This document shows positions 443 to 52,537 of a stretch of 64,000 nt of DNA, one piece after another. Under the pieces are notes generated by a model. It was not told the DNA's origin. It did not search any database and worked only from the letters and a program-made list of their open reading frames with translations. The translations under genes were made by a program, and so were the position numbers. The stretch comes from a virus, in IMG/VR virus record IMGVR_UViG_3300020220_003756, positions 9,531 to 73,530 of that record, one strand, 5' to 3'. Within the stretch, counting starts at the first letter, position 1. Each line of letters starts with the position of its first letter.

Positions 443-2366
<1,924 letters not shown>

Positions 2367-2420
2367 TCGTATTTTCTCCTTATAAAGTAAGATTAACGAG
2401 GGACCCGATGGTGTCCCTAT
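2367..2420 (-). promoter_or_regulatory. Structured groES leader, ROSE-like candidate
   Basis: AGGGAC-A-CC-ATC-GG-GTCCCT hairpin followed by TCTTACTTTATAAGGAGA. Confidence 0.6.
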
Positions 2421-2422
2421 TA

Positions 2423-4315
2423 TTAATTCTTGGTTTCTGTGTATGTAGCATCGACTACATTATCATCCTGTGATTCCGGATTGGGTTTTTCTGCTTGTTC
2501 TTTAGCAGTACGTTTTTCCAAAAGAATCTTCATCGCAGGATAAACTTTTTCTAGTTCAGATTTAATCTTATCTGTGTCATCCCCTTTGACTGCTTGTTCA
2601 ACTGAGGCAACAGCAGATTCGATTTCTGATTTTTCTGAGTCTGTGAGTGTGTCTTTAAATTCCTCTACGTCACGTTTTACTTCATATACAGTAGATTCTG
2701 CTTGATTCCGTGCTTCTATTAATTCTCTGGCTTTTTTGTCTGCATCAGCATTGGCTTCGGCTTCTTTGATCATTTTTTCGATTTCTTCTTTGCTAAGACC
2801 AGAGTCAGACTTAATCGTGATCTTATTTTCTTTTCCTGTGCCTTTGTCTTTGGCAGAGATGTGCATGATGCCATTAGCATCGATGTCGAAAGTAACTTCG
2901 ATCTGTGGCATACCTCTACGTGCCGGTGCGATTCCTTCGAGGTTGAATTCGCCTAGCATTTTGTTATGTTGAACTAACTCTCTTTCTCCCTGGAATACCT
3001 TGATAGTTACAGCAGGTTGATTGTCTTCTGCGGTGGAAAATGTCTGCTGCCCCTTAGTAGGAATAGTGGTATTTTTTTGGATGATCTTGGCCATCACACC
3101 GCCCAATGTCTCGATACCGAGGCTCAGCGGAGTGACATCTAGCAGAAGAACATCTGTTCGATCACCGCCTAGCACAGCACCTTGTACTGCGGCACCAACT
3201 GCTACCGCTTCGTCGGGGTTAACGTCTTTACGAGGAGCCTTGCCGAACAATTTCTCGACTTCTTCCTGGACCTTAGGCATACGGGTCTGACCGCCAACGA
3301 GGATGACTTCATCGATGTCTGCAGCCGTAACAGCAGCATCCTTCATAGCGATGCGGCAGGGTTCTAGGCTGCGTTGGATAAGATCCTCAACTAGGCTTTC
3401 TAGTTTAGACCTAGAAATCTTAACTACTAGATGTTTCGGACCAGACGCATCTGCGGTTACATAAGGTAAGTTAACTTCTGTCTGAGCGCTGTTCGACAGT
3501 TCGATCTTGGCTTTTTCTGCAGCATCTTTAAGACGTTGCAATGCTAGGACGTCGTTCTTGAGATCTACACCGTTTTCTTTCTTAAACTCATCGACCAAGA
3601 AATCCATGATACGTTGATCAAAGTCTTCGCCTCCCAGGAATGTATCACCATTAGTCGACAACACTTCGATCTGCTTGTCACCGTCGACATTTGCGATTTC
3701 AATGATCGAAACGTCAAATGTACCGCCTCCTAGATCATACACGGCGATTTTTCGATCTTTCTTATCAGTTTTATCAACACCATAAGCCAGCGCGGCCGCT
3801 GTAGGTTCGTTGATGATACGCAGAACTTCTAGACCAGCGATCTGTCCAGCATCTTTGGTTGCCTGTCTTTGACTGTCATTGAAGTAAGCAGGAACTGTGA
3901 TAACTGCTTTGGTAACAGTTTCGCCTAGATAATCTTCTGCGGTCTTCTTCATCTTGCGAAGGACTTCAGCAGAGATTTGGGGCGGTGCTAGTTCTTTGCC
4001 CTGTGCTCGAACCCATGCATCTCCGTTTTTAGATTCCATAATTTCGTATGGCATTAAATCGATATCTTTTTGTACAGCCTGTTCTTTGAACTTGCGACCG
4101 ATCAACCGTTTGGCTGCATAAATGGTGTTTTTGGGATTAGTTACGGCCTGTCTTTTAGCGCTGGCTCCGACCAGGATTTCGTTTTCTGTGTAGGCAACGA
4201 TGCTAGGTGTAGTGCGAGCACCTTCTGAATTTTCGATTACTTTGGATTTTCCTGCCTCGATGATGGCCACGCACGAATTGGTGGTTCCGAGGTCAATACC
4301 GATGATCTTAGACAT
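2423..4315 (-). CDS. dnaK: Chaperone DnaK (Hsp70)
   Basis: [34 protein letters not shown] motifs; 630 aa. Confidence 0.99.
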
Positions 4316-4982: not shown

Positions 4983-5680
4983 TTCATGGCCCTAGCTTCT
5001 TCACGCCATGGTGCAAGACTGACCAAAGGTGTCAGTGCCAAGATCACTCCTAGTTTGAACAGGGTGCTGCCGCTCACGATCCTAGCGATGGCCTTGTTGA
5101 GATCCATGGCATCACCACCCAACAGCGGAGGAATAAACACAAAGGCAAACAGTACAAATAAAACAGCATCCACTGGCAAGCTGACTAGGTTGCTGACAAA
5201 TGTTCTTGCCCACGAACCCCAGTCACGTTCCCACAGCACTTGATACACCCAGGTGTTGACCCACTGGCTGACCACAGTGGCGATTTCTGAACCGATCACT
5301 ATGCCCAGGCTCATCTTCCACACAGCATCAAAGTTCACACTGGGTCTAAATGCCGGAGCAGGAATAAAGGTCATGGCATACATGAATGCTGCCACAGCAA
5401 GATTCAAGACCACACCTATTAGAATCACTCGTTGCACCACAGCAGCACCGGCCAGTTTGTGCAACATGTCTCTGACCACAAACACCACAGCAAATAGCAT
5501 GGCGCCGGCAGGTGTCACTACCCAACCAAAATCCAGGAACTTGGCAGCAGCAAAGTCTGCCACGGTCATGGCCATGATTAGAGTGGCACTCAAACCAATG
5601 ATCCAGTACAGTGTTCGGTTGTCCAGTTCGATCAAAGGTCGATCAAAGAACTTATCGTTCAAGTTAGTTACTACACTCAT
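4979..5680 (-). CDS. VUT/YhhQ family (queuosine precursor transporter-like) membrane protein
   Basis: AAKFLDFG..TPAGAMLFAVVFVVRD, S..A..VSQWVN, RTFVSNLVSLPVD pattern. Confidence 0.8.
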   Translation of the reverse strand: MSVVTNLNDKFFDRPLIELDNRTLYWIIGLSATLIMAMTVADFAAAKFLDFGWVVTPAGAMLFAVVFVVRDMLHKLAGAAVVQRVILIGVVLNLAVAAFMYAMTFIPAPAFRPSVNFDAVWKMSLGIVIGSEIATVVSQWVNTWVYQVLWERDWGSWARTFVSNLVSLPVDAVLFVLFAFVFIPPLLGGDAMDLNKAIARIVSGSTLFKLGVILALTPLVSLAPWREEARAMK

Positions 5681-5701
5681 TTCAGTCTCCTCTTTAAAAA
5701 A

Positions 5702-6355
5702 TTAAAATTTTGCATGATCACTCTGTCTTTCTTGGTAGTGATCACAGATGTCTGTGAACATGCATTGATCGCATTTGGGTGATCTGGCACGGCAGATATA
5801 CTTGCCGTGATCTATCAACCATTCATGAGCACCCCAGCGATACTGATCAGGGGTATCCTGCTCTAATGTTTCTGCGGTCTTGTGTTCTGCTTTTGTATTT
5901 GCTATGCCCAGTCTGTTGCTGATACGATGCACATGGGTGTCCACGGCGATAGCAGGTTCATTGAACACAAAACGCATCATGATGTCTGTGCTTTTGCGAC
6001 CCACGCCTGCCAACTGCATCAACTGCTTTCTATCATTGGGCACTGTGCCGGCATGACGATCCAACAGTTGCTGACTCATCAACTTCAGATTCTTGGCCTT
6101 GTTGTTGTACATACCAGCAGGCCGTATTAATTGTTTTAATTTGTCTATGTCCAGGGATAGGATTTCTTCCGGAGTTTCAGCATGAGCGAATAAGTTAGCG
6201 CAGGCTTCAGCGGTGCGTTCATCTTTAGTCTGGGCACTCAGTGTCACACCCACCAGACTCTTGAACGCATTGTTGTAGATTTTTTCCCGCGGCGGATTAT
6301 TTGGCACAGGATTTTGTGCGTGAAATCGTTCGTAGACTGTGACTATTTTAGACAT
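5702..6355 (-). CDS. nth: Endonuclease III (HhH-GPD glycosylase/AP lyase)
   Basis: LSAQTKD, LAGVGRKS, IAVDTHVHRISNRLG and C-x6-C-x2-C-x5-C 4Fe-4S motif. Confidence 0.95.
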   Translation of the reverse strand: MSKIVTVYERFHAQNPVPNNPPREKIYNNAFKSLVGVTLSAQTKDERTAEACANLFAHAETPEEILSLDIDKLKQLIRPAGMYNNKAKNLKLMSQQLLDRHAGTVPNDRKQLMQLAGVGRKSTDIMMRFVFNEPAIAVDTHVHRISNRLGIANTKAEHKTAETLEQDTPDQYRWGAHEWLIDHGKYICRARSPKCDQCMFTDICDHYQERQSDHAKF

Positions 6356-6821
6356 TGGCCGCTTGTAGTTTCTTTTTATTGGCTACTGCCCAGTTGCCTC
6401 TCAGTGCAAAATAAAGTCCACCAATCCATAGGCTGAAGTGCAAGTAGTCAGAGAGAATAAAAGCCCATAGACTTTCAGGCTTGAGCACTACCCAGATCAC
6501 TCCGGTCATCACGCAACACATGACCAGGCCGCAGAATCTAGTGAGTGCATCTCCCAGTTCGGCAACATAGGGCAAGTCCCGAATCTTAGCCACAGTGGCT
6601 AATCCTCCCGCCAGTAGACCAACACCGGCTAGTATTTCACCAAAGACCACGAACCACCATACCAAGGCCGGCAGACCAAATGCTGCTCCACCCGCAGGAT
6701 CAAATGGCATCTTGGCCAAGCCCTGTGTGATAAACACCACGGCCAAAGGTATTCGCAACAGCAGGTTGCTCCAGTCAAAGTCTGGCAATGTGTGCCAATA
6801 ATTTTTTAGAACCAGTTTCAT
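6348..6821 (-). CDS. DoxX family membrane protein
   Basis: LLRIPLAVVFITQGLAK ... GEILAGVGLLAG; start moved to MKLVL behind GAAAGG SD. Confidence 0.75.
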   Translation of the reverse strand: MKLVLKNYWHTLPDFDWSNLLLRIPLAVVFITQGLAKMPFDPAGGAAFGLPALVWWFVVFGEILAGVGLLAGGLATVAKIRDLPYVAELGDALTRFCGLVMCCVMTGVIWVVLKPESLWAFILSDYLHFSLWIGGLYFALRGNWAVANKKKLQAANV

Positions 6822-6834
6822 AATATGTTTCCTT

Positions 6835-7359
6835 TCAAATGCGACGGCAAATAGAGACCGCACCGCGCGATCCCAGGTCAATCAACTTTACCCATAATTT
6901 CAATGCAGGGTTGATGGATCTAACACGCGACCCAGCATCATGCTTGTGATGCACTTCGTCGGCCTGGCATTTTTTAAGTACGACTACCAGATCGTTGTGT
7001 TCGGGATAGGAAGATAACTGATCAATCTGTTGTTGATAATGATGGTCCACAAAAGTTTCCACAGCTTGTATGGTAGCATACACTGTATTGCGTCCAAATA
7101 GAGCTGGCACAGCACCAGTGAGCCAACCTGCTATTCGCCAAGGAATCTGCAGACGACTTTGCTGTGACACATGTACCAGGGACTCCATCATTCTTAAATG
7201 CTGTCGTTCCACAGCTCCATGTGCATCAGCAAACTCCAACAATTCGGGGTCTTCCCGCCACAGGGCCACTGCTTTTATACCCCGATAGATTTCTACCGCT
7301 CCAACTTCACCTGCATGATCAGAGCGTAATTCCTGATTGATGTAGTTACTGATTGACAC
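6835..7359 (-). CDS. coq7: Demethoxyubiquinone hydroxylase (Coq7, di-iron)
   Basis: LRSDHAGEVGAVEIYRG, ERQH, VETFVDHHY, DEVHH di-iron ligands. Confidence 0.9.
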   Translation of the reverse strand: MSISNYINQELRSDHAGEVGAVEIYRGIKAVALWREDPELLEFADAHGAVERQHLRMMESLVHVSQQSRLQIPWRIAGWLTGAVPALFGRNTVYATIQAVETFVDHHYQQQIDQLSSYPEHNDLVVVLKKCQADEVHHKHDAGSRVRSINPALKLWVKLIDLGSRGAVSICRRI

Positions 7360-25254: not shown

Positions 25255-25277
25255 CTATGTCTCTCGAAGTCTGATAT

Positions 25278-25703
25278 TTATGGCAATTCGTGTCCGGCCC
25301 AAATTTTGTCTGTGCGGATTTGATCAAATGATTTTCTATCATCAACACTGCGTGGAGTGAGATTTAGAACATGATTGTGATCTACTACTAGAAAAAATCT
25401 TTTATTATGTTTCTCTGGAAGCATAGACATATGTATCTCGCATTTGGTATCCATAAACCGCTGTGTTAATTTCAAAGTATACAACATTCCTAGACAGATA
25501 GCAAGATCATCTAATTTGAGATCTAGAATCAGATGCCACGGATCAGGCCAATCGGCAGGATTTTTTGGATCGAGATATGGATTAACGAACGGAGCACGGC
25601 TCCAGAGATCTGCAACACGGACCAAGGGTTCTTGATCCAATTCCAAACTATCTCTAAATCTTTTCCATTCGTTTAATCTATCTACGCCGTGTAGATCAAA
25701 CAC
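25278..25703 (-). CDS. Hypothetical protein
   Basis: 141-aa ORF coupled to upstream structural gene; WPDPWHLI. Confidence 0.7.
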   Translation of the reverse strand: MFDLHGVDRLNEWKRFRDSLELDQEPLVRVADLWSRAPFVNPYLDPKNPADWPDPWHLILDLKLDDLAICLGMLYTLKLTQRFMDTKCEIHMSMLPEKHNKRFFLVVDHNHVLNLTPRSVDDRKSFDQIRTDKIWAGHELP

Positions 25704-38435: not shown

Positions 38436-38477
38436 ATCTGCCTCTCGTTGCCTTAGGCAGATATTTATTGTGAAAGA

Positions 38478-41112: not shown

Positions 41113-41160
41113 TTTGCTTCTCCTAATTTGTGTCCAGTATTTATGGCAGAGCAGCAGAGG

Positions 41161-43743: not shown

Positions 43744-44393
43744 TGACCTGATCCACGGTCTGTTTCTTTGAACTGATAGAACCAATTGGTATCACCGCCC
43801 GTGCTCCATTTGCTGACGTTCTCCACTGACCATATATCTGCGGGGATCTTGAAATCTGGTGTTTTCAGTTCATTGGGCACGAGACTGACATCATACCATA
43901 GGCAGCGATTGTTGGGTTGGCAGGCAAACTGTCCATTGTCTAGTTTGATAAAATTATAGCTCTTGTGTTCCTGCGCTCCTTCCGTGAATGTGACATCCAG
44001 CCTGTTGTGGTCGGGCGCAGCGAAGTCTATGGTGAACAGATAGTTGCCCAGATGAAACTTGCGATCCTTGCCATAATATTTGACCTTGAGTCCACGGAGA
44101 TTTGATTTCTCTATGACTGCCATATCGTAGCCTAGGCAGTCCCAGATCTGGAGATTATCCAAGGGCAAATATTCAGACACGGGCTTCCACACGAACGCTG
44201 AGATGGGCAGTTTGTCGTAGAGCGCACCGTAGTCTGTGAGCATACATTCTATGCGGAAGGCCTGTCCTTTGATCGCTTTGGCTGTGATCCAGAAGCAGGG
44301 TTCTAGTTCACCCTGTCGCCTTTCCTGATTGTAAAGGAACTCCGCACGGACGAAACACTTCACGGGAGGTATGTTGGCTACTAGGAAAGTCAT
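43740..44393 (-). CDS. Conserved phage hypothetical protein
   Basis: FLVANIPP, YGALYDKLPISAF, QPNNR. Confidence 0.75.
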   Translation of the reverse strand: MTFLVANIPPVKCFVRAEFLYNQERRQGELEPCFWITAKAIKGQAFRIECMLTDYGALYDKLPISAFVWKPVSEYLPLDNLQIWDCLGYDMAVIEKSNLRGLKVKYYGKDRKFHLGNYLFTIDFAAPDHNRLDVTFTEGAQEHKSYNFIKLDNGQFACQPNNRCLWYDVSLVPNELKTPDFKIPADIWSVENVSKWSTGGDTNWFYQFKETDRGSGQ

Positions 44394-44566
44394 TACAACC
44401 TACCTATTTCGACTCTTTCTTCAGTTTCAGCACAATTAGGACAACTGCATTCTGTACAGTCACAGTCGTCAGTCATGCAACTGTTTCCGCAGTGTTGGGT
44501 ACAGCCGCATCGACATTTTGCTTGCAATTTGAAATATGCTTCGTTGTCGTCTATGAAGTTTTCCAT
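44393..44566 (-). CDS. Cys-rich metallothionein-like peptide (57 aa, not in ORF track)
   Basis: KCRCGCTQHCGNSCMTDDCDCTECSCPNC; AGGAG SD; TAATG coupling to next gene. Confidence 0.75.
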   Translation of the reverse strand: MENFIDDNEAYFKLQAKCRCGCTQHCGNSCMTDDCDCTECSCPNCAETEERVEIGRL

Positions 44567-44608: not shown

Positions 44609-46720
44609 TCATGCGTGTTCCTGCCAAGTTACAGTTCCTGTGGCTTGACCGTCGGCCACAGAGCTTATAGCGGCCAAACACCATATATCTGACACGCCAG
44701 CTAATGTTCTACCTAATTGTTGACTAAAATCAATTTCGTTGCCCATGGATAGACTGCCACCTCTAGTTGGGCCTATAAACATACCCTGATCTATCACAGT
44801 GCCCCCAGTAAGTGCAGTGGCTGATAAGTCATATTCGACTGAACTATCTGCTCCTGCTGACTGGAAACTTGCTCCAGTTAAAGTAGGATTTAGAATAATT
44901 CTATATGAATAATTTGCATCATTCAGTCCAAGCACTTCAAATTTAGCTGGAACTACAACTGCATCTAAAAACTGACTTTTTAATCTAATATTTATTAACG
45001 GTCGGTAAATTGAATCGCTTAGATTTTTTCCAGACAAACTATTTCCTATGGATCTAGGTATACTGCGATTTACGTATCCGCCCTCAGAAATAACCGTGCT
45101 ACAAATAACCTGCATAGCAGTGTACTCTGATACTTCTCTTTCCGATTCGTCAACTAACAGTTCATATCTTACAGGCAAGGTAGCAGTGGTCATGTAAACC
45201 AAAGCTAGATTTCCAGCATGATGGAATGTATGACATACTATGAAGTTACCGTCGATTACAAAACCAGTTCTAACTGATCCAACTCCTAGCCATTCTAAAT
45301 CGCACCACCATATCTGTGCTTTAGTTACGTTTAGTGTTTTTCCGCTGGCACCTGTGCCATCAAGCTTGTCTCCATTCCAGCTACTTTGCGGAATTTTCTC
45401 TGTGCTGTCGTCTACAGAGCCTGTTGTGTACTTACGTATGACTATGTTCTTTATGGTGTCATTAGTTTCAAAATACACTCCGTTCTCTGTGCCAAAGAAT
45501 CCAACACGTTGCGTTACACCTATTGTTGGATTGTTCATTACAAAGGATGCCATTACCAAAAGACTTTTACCTGGTTGGTAACTGAACACCCTCTTGCTTT
45601 CTCTGACACAGGTTCCACCGGCACTTGTGGACATGGTGATTGTGCTAGTAAATGCATCAAATGTGATCGAACCAGAGGATGTAGTTGATTCACTCCATTT
45701 TAGAGGATCATCTCTATATCTCAGAGCACCATCAAACAAGGTGTAAGGATCGCTAACACGAAGCCGGGCTACAGCATCTAGGTTAGTGCCAGTGATAGTG
45801 GTTTCCGTAGTGCCCGTTATAGGTAGAGGATTAATGCTTGATACTGTTTGCCCATCTAAAGTTAAGGAAACTTGTCCTATAATGCTAAGACTACTTTCGC
45901 CGCAGTTCTGTATCTCTAAACAGGTATTAGTGATGTTTACATCTAATGTAGTGTCTACGCAGTTCTGCACTCCTATACAGGTGTTGCGGAGATCTACGGG
46001 GAATGGATTTTCTACAGTGACCGCCACACCTTCAACGGTGATATTTCCAGAAACACTTAACACCCCATCTGTGCCGCAATTCGTCACAGGTATACAGGTG
46101 CCTTCTGGAAAGGCTACTATCAACGGATTCAAATCTGACACTGGCAGACCTTCTAGGCCAGTTTCTATCTTTACTATTCCTACTACGCTGAGACTGCCTT
46201 CTCCACAGTTTTGTATAGATATACAGTCGTCGCCTAGAGTCACTGGTAAAGGATTGTTGTTCGCCACAGGCAATTCGTTGATAAGGATTATAGAATTAGC
46301 ATTGGTGTTTAACCTGGTACCGTCGCAGTTCATGACCTTGAGGCAGGTGTCTGTGATGTCTACTGGTATGGGATTGCCCGTGGCCAGCGGTAGTCCTCCT
46401 ACCAGCAATCCCACGTTGCCGCTAATCACCCAGGGGCTTGTGCCCTGATAGACCGTGCCCTGTATGGCCAGCGTGTTGCCGGAATCCGTCTTCACACTGA
46501 CTTCTGGCATCGAGTTGATATCTACAGGTGGCATTGAAACAACATTAATATTAGTATCAATATTGATATCACCTTGTACAATGATATTACCTTGGAAGTT
46601 AGAAATTACCCTCAGCGCAGGTTCGCCCGTGCTCAGGTAATCCATAGCGGTATGGAGGTCTGAAACATTGGGCTCCCAACTGTGTTGGTAGTTGGTTGAA
46701 TTGGGATTCATTATTCCCAT
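44609..46720 (-). CDS. Large virion structural protein with internal repeats and lectin-like C-terminus
   Basis: NP[LIF]P repeats; YQPGKS, QRVGFF, LEWLGVGSVRTGF C-terminal domain. Confidence 0.7.
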   Translation of the reverse strand: MGIMNPNSTNYQHSWEPNVSDLHTAMDYLSTGEPALRVISNFQGNIIVQGDINIDTNINVVSMPPVDINSMPEVSVKTDSGNTLAIQGTVYQGTSPWVISGNVGLLVGGLPLATGNPIPVDITDTCLKVMNCDGTRLNTNANSIILINELPVANNNPLPVTLGDDCISIQNCGEGSLSVVGIVKIETGLEGLPVSDLNPLIVAFPEGTCIPVTNCGTDGVLSVSGNITVEGVAVTVENPFPVDLRNTCIGVQNCVDTTLDVNITNTCLEIQNCGESSLSIIGQVSLTLDGQTVSSINPLPITGTTETTITGTNLDAVARLRVSDPYTLFDGALRYRDDPLKWSESTTSSGSITFDAFTSTITMSTSAGGTCVRESKRVFSYQPGKSLLVMASFVMNNPTIGVTQRVGFFGTENGVYFETNDTIKNIVIRKYTTGSVDDSTEKIPQSSWNGDKLDGTGASGKTLNVTKAQIWWCDLEWLGVGSVRTGFVIDGNFIVCHTFHHAGNLALVYMTTATLPVRYELLVDESEREVSEYTAMQVICSTVISEGGYVNRSIPRSIGNSLSGKNLSDSIYRPLINIRLKSQFLDAVVVPAKFEVLGLNDANYSYRIILNPTLTGASFQSAGADSSVEYDLSATALTGGTVIDQGMFIGPTRGGSLSMGNEIDFSQQLGRTLAGVSDIWCLAAISSVADGQATGTVTWQEHA

Positions 46721-46723
46721 TGA

Positions 46724-47146
46724 TTAACTCCAGGGTCTACCGTTGACTGCTCCGCCCGGGTTGGGATTATCTACCACCGAGTTACCTACATATTTGGTTG
46801 GTAGATCTGTAAGGGTATAGGTGCTTCTTGGATTACCGTCTGCTGCTCTAGTAGCCGCGGCAATTTCTAATTTTTGTATCTGTCTATCTTCTTTGGTACC
46901 TACTTGATTTGGAGTGCAAAGCACAGTGTCTCCATCTACTATGCCTAGAGTAGTCAGTGAGGTACTGCTGTCTCCATATACAGTATCATTTATTGCAGGG
47001 TTATTTAATAAACTGATTTTGTAATAGTCAGTGGGTAGCCCTTCATCGGCAGCGATAGCGATAATCAATTGATCTATGGTGATCGTCAATGCCACTGTGA
47101 CATCACGTTTTCTGCTGGTAAGCCCTATATAGTATATTGTGGCCAT
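46724..47146 (-). CDS. Protein with N-terminal ubiquitin-like (beta-grasp) domain
   Basis: Ungapped manual alignment to ubiquitin residues 1-45 gives 11 identities including LT, TI and EG.P.D. Confidence 0.65.
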   Translation of the reverse strand: MATIYYIGLTSRKRDVTVALTITIDQLIIAIAADEGLPTDYYKISLLNNPAINDTVYGDSSTSLTTLGIVDGDTVLCTPNQVGTKEDRQIQKLEIAAATRAADGNPRSTYTLTDLPTKYVGNSVVDNPNPGGAVNGRPWS

Positions 47147-47436
47147 TAAATACTCCCATGAATTCTTATGCTGTTGCCTCTGATATCATCAACATGTTTG
47201 GGTTTGTTTGGACCGCCGCCTGCGGCTGTGGTCACTGCTTCAATGCTGGCATATTCTTCTTTGGGAGTATTGGAGTATTCTGTCTCTTCTCTATTGTCGT
47301 TTAGATCTACGATCTGGCGGAATCTACGCATGTCATCATCATAGAACTGTTCAGCAGGCACGGGTTCATCAGCTCGAACTTGATCTTTGCCGTCGATGAT
47401 ATCTAAGATACCTCGTATAAGTTCTGATATCCTCAT
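47146..47436 (-). CDS. Hypothetical protein
   Basis: 96 aa, starts MRISELI. Confidence 0.7.
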   Translation of the reverse strand: MRISELIRGILDIIDGKDQVRADEPVPAEQFYDDDMRRFRQIVDLNDNREETEYSNTPKEEYASIEAVTTAAGGGPNKPKHVDDIRGNSIRIHGSI

Positions 47437-47747
47437 TGTATGCCGCCTAGTTGTTTGATACGTGCTAATTCATCAACTTCTGCGGTTTCAGCATACTTGT
47501 TGGCTTTCATATAATCACGTGCAGTATCTAGATAGTCCATGGCTTTGACGATCTTGGCCTGTACCCATTCTGGCAAGTTTTCGTCCGCATGGATGATACT
47601 GTATAATTCTTTAGCAGCATCGTTGATAGTTCTTAAATCGTCTTTGGCCATATCACCTTCACGATCGTATTCGCCTTTGTTGTACTCTGCATCAGGATCT
47701 ACTGGACCGTGATCTTCGTTGGTTTCGCTGTTTACAATATTTGACAT
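47433..47747 (-). CDS. Hypothetical acidic protein, possibly head-associated
   Basis: EGDMAK, LPEWVQAKI, ELARIKQLGG; TAAATA at 47772-47767. Confidence 0.7.
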   Translation of the reverse strand: MSNIVNSETNEDHGPVDPDAEYNKGEYDREGDMAKDDLRTINDAAKELYSIIHADENLPEWVQAKIVKAMDYLDTARDYMKANKYAETAEVDELARIKQLGGIQ

Positions 47748-47791
47748 GGTATTATCCTCGGTCTAATATTTATCGGGTTAAATAACTTTGT

Positions 47792-51586: not shown

Positions 51587-51950
51587 TTTGGCTGTCTCCG
51601 GGGATGATCCTATAATTGTCTTCTACTGAATCAGGAGTACTGACTTCGAATAACATGCTGTTATCTTCCAGCGCGATAAGTTGATGGGGCATTAAGGGCG
51701 GGTTGCGCCATACATCACCTTCTTTGAGTATCTTCTCTGCATAGGTAGCAGTCGATGTATCGCAATAGATCAATTTGAAACTGCCAGCGTTGATAAACCA
51801 AGTTTCATCTTTTTCTTTGTGAAAATGCATGCTAAACTTGGCTCCCTTCTTTTCAAAAACTAGGATCTTCCCGGCATATTTGTCGTTGGTGGCCCAGATT
51901 ATCTCATAACCCCACCCTTTATCTATTTTTCCTTGTAATCTCTGTGTCAT
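51552..51950 (-). CDS. Cupin, sugar isomerase-like
   Basis: KGWGYE, SMHFH..KDETW, H, EVST..DNYR. Confidence 0.8.
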
Positions 51951-52537
51951 GGTCGTTTCTCGATAATCTTATCGATAAGTCCGTAGTCCAATGCTTCCTG
52001 CGCTGTCATGAACTTATCTCTCTCCATGTCTGCGGTCAATTGTTCGAAACTCTTACCTTTGCTGTTATGCTTGACATAGATATCGGTGAGGGTCTTTTTC
52101 ATTTTTAGTATTTCTTCGACCTGTATGGCCATATCCGTGGCCTGGCCTCGGGCACCTCCGCTGGGCTGATGTATCATATGGCGAGCATTAGGCAGCATAG
52201 AACGCTTACCTGCGGTACCTGCGGTCGATAACAAACTGCCCATGCTGCAGGCCTGTCCCATCACGTAAGTGGCTATGTCACATTTAACAAATTGCATGAC
52301 ATCGTAGATGCTCATTCCTGCGGTAACTACGCCGCCCGGACTGTTGATAAAAAGATTGATGTCTTTATCTGGATTTTCACTTTCTAAAAACAATATCTGC
52401 GCCACGATGAGATTGGCCATATAATCTTCGATGGGACCATTTAACATAATGATCCGCTCTTTGAGCAATCTGCTATAGATATCAAAAGCACGTTCACCTT
52501 TCGATGTGCTTTCTACTACGACTGGAACTAGGTTCAT
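51947..52537 (-). CDS. clpP: ATP-dependent Clp protease proteolytic subunit
   Basis: [34 protein letters not shown]. Confidence 0.97.

Follow-up and report, generated by a model that had tools for sequence, protein, structure and literature searches.

A ubiquitin-like domain joined to a conserved GRPW module and encoded next to a fibre-like gene in an uncultured jumbo phage

We analyzed a 64,000-nucleotide stretch of viral DNA (the window), which is part of the 73.5-kb IMG/VR virus record IMGVR_UViG_3300020220_003756, and within it an open reading frame (ORF) at positions 46724-47146 that encodes a protein of 140 amino acids. The ORF lies on the minus strand and reads from 47146 to 46724; on the plus strand, the frame at these positions is closed by many stop codons. 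An earlier examination of the DNA letters (the sequence-only reading) had compared a peptide from this region with ubiquitin, and that peptide is the N-terminal start of the 140-residue protein. The protein has two parts: a ubiquitin-family beta-grasp domain (residues 1-82, positions 46901..47146, minus strand) and a conserved C-terminal module that we call GRPW (residues 83-140, positions 46727..46900, minus strand).

The ORF is a real gene under purifying selection. Relative to four homologues with 76-81% identity, there are 0.12-0.19 non-synonymous differences per site and 0.61-0.85 synonymous differences per site, which is near saturation, and both halves of the gene are alike in this. A collection of 5.8 billion proteins contains 261 relatives at E ≤ 0.01, all of them named only "hypothetical protein," and there are 243 cluster representatives at E ≤ 1e-3. 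CheckV estimates that the 73.5-kb record is 21% complete, which implies a genome of roughly 350 kb and hence a jumbo phage; also, a homologue of the protein with 74% identity (P0062) is encoded on a 357-kb contig. The window encodes DnaK, GroEL, ClpP, ribonucleotide reductase, DNA polymerase, DNA ligase, and an enzyme similar to ALA synthase (ALAS). The phage is an uncultured aquatic jumbo phage of ~350 kb, and none of 50,697 deposited phage genomes is closely related to it. Using tblastn, we found no match to the 140-residue protein in these deposited records either. We also scanned 185,579 prokaryote genomes, one for each species, by pattern and found no close relatives of the protein, so bacterial genomes give no clue about the host.

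The N-terminal domain is homologous to ubiquitin and has a ubiquitin-like (Ubl) fold. The sequence-only reading had reported 11 identities in an ungapped comparison of 45 residues with ubiquitin (I3, L8, T9, V17, T22, I23, I30, E34, G35, P37, and D39). These identities are right, as checked by eye, but by themselves they are not significant. Searches with the single protein sequence were negative: phmmer against 177,635 sequences from the PDB (E ≤ 10) found no ubiquitin, and its sole match was a cadherin-type receptor; Pfam gave no Ubl family at E ≤ 1, and the protein is below the gathering cut-off of PF00240; a six-frame search of the window's own record with PF00240 found nothing; and there was no match in PHROGs, in NCBIfam, or in PADLOC (whose 2023 library may lack models for Bil). 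All that can be concluded from these negative searches is that the copy in the window has diverged. It has an insertion of 10-15 residues in the second half of the domain, around residues 48-62, and the positions equivalent to the Ile44 patch of ubiquitin do not appear to be conserved by eye.

The family as a whole gives a clearer signal. When we compared a profile of 29 family members to the PDB, 364 sequences matched at E ≤ 10, and the 60 matches listed were all ubiquitin, ubiquitin fusions, or engineered variants. For mono-ubiquitin chains, E values ranged from 2e-5 to 7e-5, with positions 3-77 of the profile aligned to residues 2-71 of ubiquitin; this alignment agrees with a second block of similarity to ubiquitin that the sequence-only reading had proposed. 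Taken singly, 14 of 72 members match PF00240 (E ≤ 0.01; best 3.5e-11) and 6 of the 72 match Rad60-SLD. One member (P0196) scores 37.2 bits on PF00240, where the gathering cut-off is 25.4 bits. In a six-frame search, the record of a relative (G003) reached 25.9 bits, also above the cut-off, while none of 14 control prokaryote genomes did.

The predicted structure agrees with the profile. AlphaFold2, given 72 sequences, modeled the protein with a predicted local distance difference test (pLDDT) score of 91.9 and a predicted template modeling score of 0.84, and Foldseek superposed residues 1 to ~82 on SUMO1, ubiquitin, NEDD8, and ISG15 (E about 3e-5, TMt 0.75-0.83). The best 50 structural matches are all ubiquitin or Ubl proteins of the eukaryotic type. 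In a library of viral structures, 43 entries matched at E ≤ 1e-3; the only phage proteins were four members of this same family, from uncultured Caudovirales, and the rest were from viruses of eukaryotes. The sequence-only reading had named the predicted fold and the profile searches as the two points on which the Ubl assignment could fail, and it withstood both.

Conjugatable modifiers have a C-terminal glycine tail, which the 140-residue protein lacks, and no Gly-Gly directly follows the beta-grasp. Instead, the chain continues as Q-V-G-T-K-E into the first helix of the GRPW module, and the protein ends in GRPWS. (A Gly-Thr-Lys is mostly conserved at the boundary, but its glycine is not invariant.) The sequence-only reading was thus correct that there is no terminal Gly-Gly and that a tail of roughly 60 residues follows the domain. 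Because the Ubl has no C-terminal Gly-Gly and runs straight into the putative docking module, it is not a conjugatable modifier.

The GRPW module is predicted to consist of a helix (residues 85-102), a beta-hairpin (strands at 117-120 and 123-126), and a C-terminal strand; pLDDT is 87-94 from residue 81 to residue 130 and drops to 67 in the final ten. Its invariant or nearly invariant residues are Q89, K92, L93, R100, L115, P116, Y119, L133, R137, P138, and W139. The module has no Pfam, PHROG, or NCBIfam model. Searches with the whole structural model (VIA and Foldseek) matched only residues 1-85, with nothing beyond residue ~85, and the ESM Atlas had no usable match for residues 81-140. As judged by its sequence, the module is a previously undescribed family.

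To see how the two parts are combined, we split the 29-member alignment into two hidden Markov models (HMMs), one for the Ubl and one for the module, and classified 268 stored relatives. Most had the Ubl and the module, either with nothing else (150 proteins), with a C-terminal extension (53), or with an N-terminal extension (2). Another 59 had the module without the Ubl; 40 of these had a C-terminal extension, 14 were short and are probably fragments, and 5 had other arrangements. Two were fragments with the Ubl only, and two repeat proteins (P0136 and P0252) matched neither HMM and are probably spurious. Since the query carried the Ubl, this sample is biased towards forms that have it. The sequence-only reading had asked whether some homologues share the tail and lack the Ubl, and such homologues do exist, also at the same syntenic slot in related loci (L027/28, see below). 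In the proteins without the Ubl, the module is at residues 9-66, after a short conserved N-terminus.

The extensions carry similar domains whether or not the Ubl is present. Among 72 Ubl-bearing members, we found Laminin_G_3 in 17, GLEYA in 7, PA14 in 7, and ILEI in 2; among 41 members of at least 140 amino acids that lack the Ubl, we found Laminin_G_3 in 12, GLEYA in 7, PA14 in 7, ILEI in 6, and Gly_rich_2, Calx-beta, and Sialidase-N in one each. Domains are also inserted within the module, before the last strand (P0126, P0133, P0220, and P0264) or before the helix (P0197 and P0264). In another protein (P0187), the Ubl and the module are at the C-terminal end, so that the Ubl is internal, between an N-terminal domain of 340 amino acids and the module. 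In these arrangements, the module behaves like a small platform with room for passengers at three points, and the Ubl is one of them.

Two unusual relatives deserve mention. P0130 (167 amino acids) is a chimera in which the Ubl and half of the GRPW module lead into the C-terminal ~45 residues of a p96-type protein (p96 is described below); it may be a natural recombinant of these two neighboring genes or an assembly artefact. At another locus (L026, positions 599-1267) is a GRPW protein without the Ubl whose C-terminal domain resembles inner parts of two "tail protein" PHROGs of very large size, phrog_23593 (E 3e-11) and phrog_5911. That gene sits among genes for an HNH endonuclease, an RNA-binding protein, and a ClpP-like protease and away from the ALAS locus, so module proteins occur at other genomic sites as well.

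In the window, the Ubl gene is the third of four genes in a minus-strand operon. A promoter-like TAAATA box (47767..47772) lies 25 nt upstream of the first gene. In order, the genes are p104 (47433..47747), which encodes an acidic protein of 104 amino acids; p96 (47146..47436), which encodes a protein of 96 amino acids; the Ubl gene; and a gene for a fibre-like protein of 703 amino acids (44609..46720). Each gene ends either within the start codon of the next or 3 nt before it: the stop of p104 overlaps the start of p96, and the stop of p96 overlaps the ATG of the Ubl gene. p104 has a weak match to phrog_32745 (E 2e-4, unknown function) and no Pfam family, and p96 has no Pfam, PHROG, or NCBIfam family.

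We then compared 27 related IMG/VR loci, of which 24 have a complete junction. (Some of the loci are near duplicates: L006-L008, L014/15, L016/17, L018-20, L024/25, and L027/28.) The genes keep the same order: ALAS (on the opposite strand), then p96, the module gene, and the fibre-like gene, with an endonuclease further along. A p96 homologue is directly upstream of the Ubl or anchor gene in 25 of the 27 loci (all except L023 and L026). The slot before the fibre-like gene takes four forms: Ubl and module (139-149 amino acids); Ubl, module, and LamG (358 amino acids; L018-20 and L024/25); Ubl, module, and PA14/GLEYA (307 amino acids; L010); and module and PA14/GLEYA without the Ubl (252 amino acids; L027/28). 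The phage that has this last form is a close relative, with ALAS and p96 82% and 74% identical to those of the window. Two loci (L004, positions 5584-6660, and L012, positions 6001-7200) have the Ubl gene and no fibre-like gene; what comes directly after the Ubl gene in L004 is a homologue of the window's 217-amino-acid phrog_3704 protein.

These variants bear on what the Ubl might do. The sequence-only reading had offered two options, a structural beta-grasp domain or a decoy or inhibitor of bacterial defenses. The structural option is favored by the context, because the tail module also occurs without the Ubl, before lectin domains, in the same slot upstream of a fibre-like gene; the other has no positive support. 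As a decoy or inhibitor, the phage's Ubl would titrate or block the E1, E2, or deubiquitinase (DUB) enzymes of Bil/Bub systems or of type II cyclic oligonucleotide-based antiphage signaling systems (CBASS), or it would shield the fibre. The fold is nearest to ubiquitin proper, and the Ubl gene adjoins a fibre-like gene, while Bil reportedly conjugates a Ubl to the central tail fibre of phages (bioRxiv 10.1101/2023.09.04.556158). However, the beta-grasp is not followed by a Gly-Gly that is free or could be exposed by processing; the Gly-Gly inside the protein is part of the module motif and is present in proteins without the Ubl; and close relatives manage without the Ubl at this very locus. 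We also searched five partial records (19-29% complete) for ThiF, Prok-JAB, JAB/MPN, Peptidase_C48, OTU, and NLPC_P60, and none of these families was found in any of the five (OTU matched no control genome, and E2 families were not among the searches). Thus, there is no sign of an E1 (ThiF) in these records, Pfam matched no family in the operon neighbors, and as described above, PADLOC gave no match. Nothing ties this lineage to hosts with such systems, and the pattern scan found no close relatives of the protein in bacterial genomes. Overall, we consider a decoy or inhibitor quite improbable.

The junction between the Ubl gene and the fibre-like gene is itself conserved. In the window, the Ubl gene ends in TGG AGT TAA TCA ATG: the TAA stop (46724..46726, minus strand) is followed by a single codon (TCA), after which the fibre-like gene starts with ATG in an unchanged frame. 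A Shine-Dalgarno-like GGAG (46728..46731, minus strand) lies within the codons for Trp139 and Ser140, seven bases ahead of this ATG, and probably acts in translational coupling. The same arrangement, with a stop that is always TAA, then 3 nt, and then a start codon, is found in 20 of the 24 loci. Of the exceptions, L004 and L012 lack the fibre-like gene, the spacer in L010 is 51 nt long, and the context differs in L026. In the cyanophage S-RIM12 (KX349325.1; L029, positions 5596-5925), a gene for a protein of 108 amino acids precedes the homologue of the fibre-like gene, with the same spacing of a stop, 3 nt, and ATG. We considered whether this upstream gene might be a relative of the Ubl or of GRPW, but by eye, the translations show no resemblance.

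The shared frame and the single intervening codon, kept at so many loci, might suggest that the two frames form one protein, by read-through of the stop codon or because a gene was recently split. This is highly improbable. TAA is present at all 20 loci, with a start codon after it and a GGAG-like element before it; a fused form is not present among the 268 relatives; and the same spacing follows the variants of 358 and 252 amino acids as well as the unrelated upstream gene of S-RIM12. Furthermore, a spacer of exactly three bases is the sole reason that the genes are in one frame, so conservation of this spacing yields a shared frame automatically.

The downstream protein begins with a conserved N-terminal peptide (residues ~1-45), followed by a cysteine-containing repeat shaft (~46-300), a domain with the ConA-like fold of lectins and glucanases (~319-549), and a C-terminal beta domain. 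It matches phrog_1645, "virion structural protein," with E 1.3e-100, and its C-terminal ~415 amino acids are 39-46% identical to annotated virion structural proteins of T4-like cyanophages and of Puniceispirillum phage HMO-2011. Among its relatives, the first ~45 residues are conserved and the remainder is mosaic. The sequence-only reading had placed the Ubl gene just upstream of a fibre-like gene, and the position, the ConA-like fold, and the PHROG match of this neighbor bear that out. A prediction of a complex between the 140-residue protein and residues 1-70 of the fibre-like protein had a score of 0.00 and a mark of 0.32, which counts neither for nor against binding.

The repeat shaft (45820-46585, minus strand) adds ~250 amino acids, in about five cysteine-containing units of ~25-30 amino acids each (N-P-x-P-V ... 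C ... N-C-G). It is an insertion that is absent from 10 of 11 aligned relatives, and AlphaFold2 models it with pLDDT below 50. It may be a fibre shaft that is stabilised by disulfides or metal. Directly after the fibre-like gene is an ORF for 57 amino acids (44393-44566, minus strand) whose product has 10 cysteines with CxC/CxxC-type spacing. It has no Pfam or PHROG family and is 59% identical in L027/L028.

TAAATA looks like a general promoter element of this phage. Of the 45 copies in the window, 18 are 8-80 nt upstream of gene starts on the same strand, compared to 2.1 expected (with no control for the AT-rich composition of intergenic regions). Examples are at 47767-47772, 25275-25280, 38462-38467, and 41138-41143, all on the minus strand. 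Because the box also precedes the genes for ribonucleotide reductase, DNA polymerase, and isocitrate lyase, it cannot be used to call the Ubl operon late, and the "late operon" of the sequence-only reading is not established. The T4-type late promoter TATAAATA is not enriched in the window (4 copies, 3.05 expected), nor is ATAAATATT (2 copies, 1.37 expected).

We propose that the 140-residue protein is a two-module accessory protein of a fibre or adhesin cassette, with GRPW for docking and the Ubl as an optional, non-conjugatable head; this account is probable, if well short of certain. The 58-residue GRPW module would be the constant and functionally central part, and it would dock the protein either to the virion or to the fibre-like product of the next gene. 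Relatives have this module at the N-terminus of proteins with sugar-binding LamG, PA14/GLEYA, or ILEI domains, and it may hold different passengers, lectin domains or here the Ubl, on the particle or on the fibre made with it. As a head of this kind, the Ubl could act as a protein-protein adaptor or cap or as an assembly aid. The protein would be made together with p104, p96, and the 703-residue fibre from one translationally coupled operon. We infer the virion location, the docking, and the role of the Ubl from the constancy of the module, its position, and its neighbors. In particular, a conserved short module is combined with exchangeable domains of the receptor-binding type, as in attachment modules of fibres and adhesins.

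Several observations weigh against this account. No virion proteomics or structure exists for any member of the family, and with the family absent from the 50,697 deposited phage genomes, no cultured system stands behind it. "Virion structural protein" is a database label on distant homologues of the neighbor, not of the 140-residue protein. The lack of fusions among the 268 relatives means that there is no Rosetta-stone evidence for contact with the fibre-type protein, and L004 and L012 show that the pair is not obligatory. The operon lies among metabolic genes (ALAS, sugar-nucleotide enzymes, and an endonuclease) instead of in a recognisable tail module, and the TAAATA box does not mark it as late. 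Finally, no structural relative of GRPW is known, which leaves position and constancy as the only arguments for docking.

The main rival, to which we assign a low but appreciable probability, is an assembly checkpoint like that of lambda gpI. In this scenario, the Ubl is a removable tag that a peptidase of the phage or the host cuts off after the module joins the fibre complex, and the mature particle keeps only the 58-residue module. Points in its favor are the mostly conserved Gly-Thr-Lys at the boundary and the Ubl-less forms in this slot, from which it is clear that the module can function alone. But the boundary glycine varies; p104, p96, and the fibre-like protein belong to no peptidase family (Pfam, PHROG, or NCBIfam); and none of Prok-JAB, JAB/MPN, Peptidase_C48, OTU, or NLPC_P60 was found in the five partial records. 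The internal Ubl of P0187 fits a permanent spacer better than a pro-domain. Also, the Ubl is similar to ubiquitin and not to ThiS/MoaD: a Pfam scan of 72 members (E ≤ 0.01) matched 13 families, and the Ubl families among them are of the ubiquitin type and do not include ThiS or PF06805, which we take to be the accession of Lambda_tail_I. What most recalls lambda is the layout, which PMC1779556 describes for the TAPI proteins of lambda and T1: an N-terminal Ubl, a small C-terminal domain, and an adjacent gene for a host-specificity fibre.

Alternatively, the protein might be an intracellular helper, such as a chaperone for the folding or oligomerisation of the downstream fibre, and not be part of particles. 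Eukaryotic UBL domains often recruit chaperone or proteasome machinery, the Ubl gene is tightly coupled to the fibre-like gene in translation, and the phage encodes DnaK, GroEL, and ClpP. (The genes for GroEL, DnaK, and ClpP are at 443-4315 and 51947-52537, minus strand, and a proteostasis link with the UBL domain might merit a look.) However, lectin-type domains on the same module would have no purpose on a cytoplasmic chaperone, and the Ubl gene persists without the fibre-like gene in L004 and L012. We view a helper of this kind as unlikely.

If the protein is an accessory of the fibre cassette, then we would rate it as a Ubl-tagged fibre or tail-tip accessory protein of a phage, which is a known kind of protein in a new form. 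So far, Ubl domains in phage morphogenesis are known from lambda-type gpI, where the domain resembles ThiS/MoaD and a JAB peptidase cuts it off; the present family would be a second, independent use, with a domain that Pfam assigns to the ubiquitin family proper on an undescribed module of 58 amino acids. Uncultured aquatic jumbo phages would share GRPW as a platform for sugar-binding domains, within a defined cassette (p96, the module protein, and a lectin-fold fibre) whose host-recognition parts are swapped. Since variants with and without the Ubl occur naturally at one locus, its contribution is directly testable. We found no description of the Ubl/GRPW family in the literature that we searched, although the supplementary tables of PMC1779556 or PMC7824862 could conceivably list such proteins; in a survey of 224 jumbo phages, ubiquitin is mentioned only twice, irrelevantly (PMC7824862). 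A bolder idea is that a ubiquitin-family domain was taken into the fibre apparatus to engage ubiquitin-like machinery of the host cell, either as a mimic or shield against Bil-type defenses or as a ubiquitin-type assembly tag that is independent of JAB. Bil systems reportedly attack phage fibres with Ubls, which makes a phage Ubl beside a fibre gene a reasonable candidate for counter-defense, though nothing here supports counter-defense yet. The idea has perhaps a slim chance of being right; if true, this would be the first ubiquitin-proper domain with a function in the particle of a bacterial virus.

How does this family compare with known systems? Eukaryotic ubiquitin and the integral UBL domains of Rad23/Dsk2-type proteins differ in that the 140-residue protein is from a phage of bacteria, has an insertion, scores below the PF00240 threshold, and does not conserve the equivalents of the Ile44 patch. 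The Ubls of Bil/Bub and type II CBASS are also beta-grasp domains in a conflict between phage and bacterium, and the tail fibre is reportedly the target of Bil. But those Ubls are encoded by the host, are conjugatable via a C-terminal glycine, and lie in operons with E1, E2, and DUB enzymes, whereas this one is encoded by a phage, has no glycine at the C-terminus of the domain, and has no E1- or DUB-type enzymes that we could find nearby.

Fibre and tailspike proteins with an N-terminal attachment domain are alike in combining a constant short module with variable LamG, PA14, or ILEI domains, exchanged at one syntenic slot. In contrast to their attachment domains, GRPW is a new sequence family that accepts domains at three positions, including the N-terminal one, and its attachment to the virion is only putative. 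The phrog_1645 proteins of T4-like cyanophages and HMO-2011 have the C-terminal ~415 amino acids in common with the window's 703-residue protein, which differs by its extra repeat shaft. In the corresponding regions of S-RIM12 and HMO-2011, the gene directly upstream has no similarity to the Ubl/GRPW protein that is evident by eye.

This leaves the TAPI proteins of lambda and T1. In lambda, the JAB peptidase gpK cuts the Ubl off gpI after gpI has joined the tail-tip complex, according to PMC1779556 and a conference report (PMC12908700). As those sources describe them, TAPI proteins likewise have an N-terminal Ubl beta-grasp and a small C-terminal structural domain, their genes adjoin a host-specificity fibre gene (J in lambda), they are sometimes fused to other tail proteins, and their Ubl is not a free modifier. 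But in TAPI, the Ubl resembles ThiS/MoaD, has a terminal glycine that is conserved, and is paired with the JAB/NlpC peptidase gpK, while here it is similar to ubiquitin proper and we found no JAB/NlpC nearby. The C-terminal domain of TAPI is unrelated to the GRPW module, which also heads lectin proteins, and TAPI is from siphoviruses while the window is from a jumbo phage. Given the ubiquitin-proper Ubl, the lack of a PF06805 match, the unrelated C-terminal module, and no peptidase found in the operon or the five partial records, this family is not a member of TAPI. By analogy of layout and position, lambda gpI/TAPI is nevertheless its closest known analogue.
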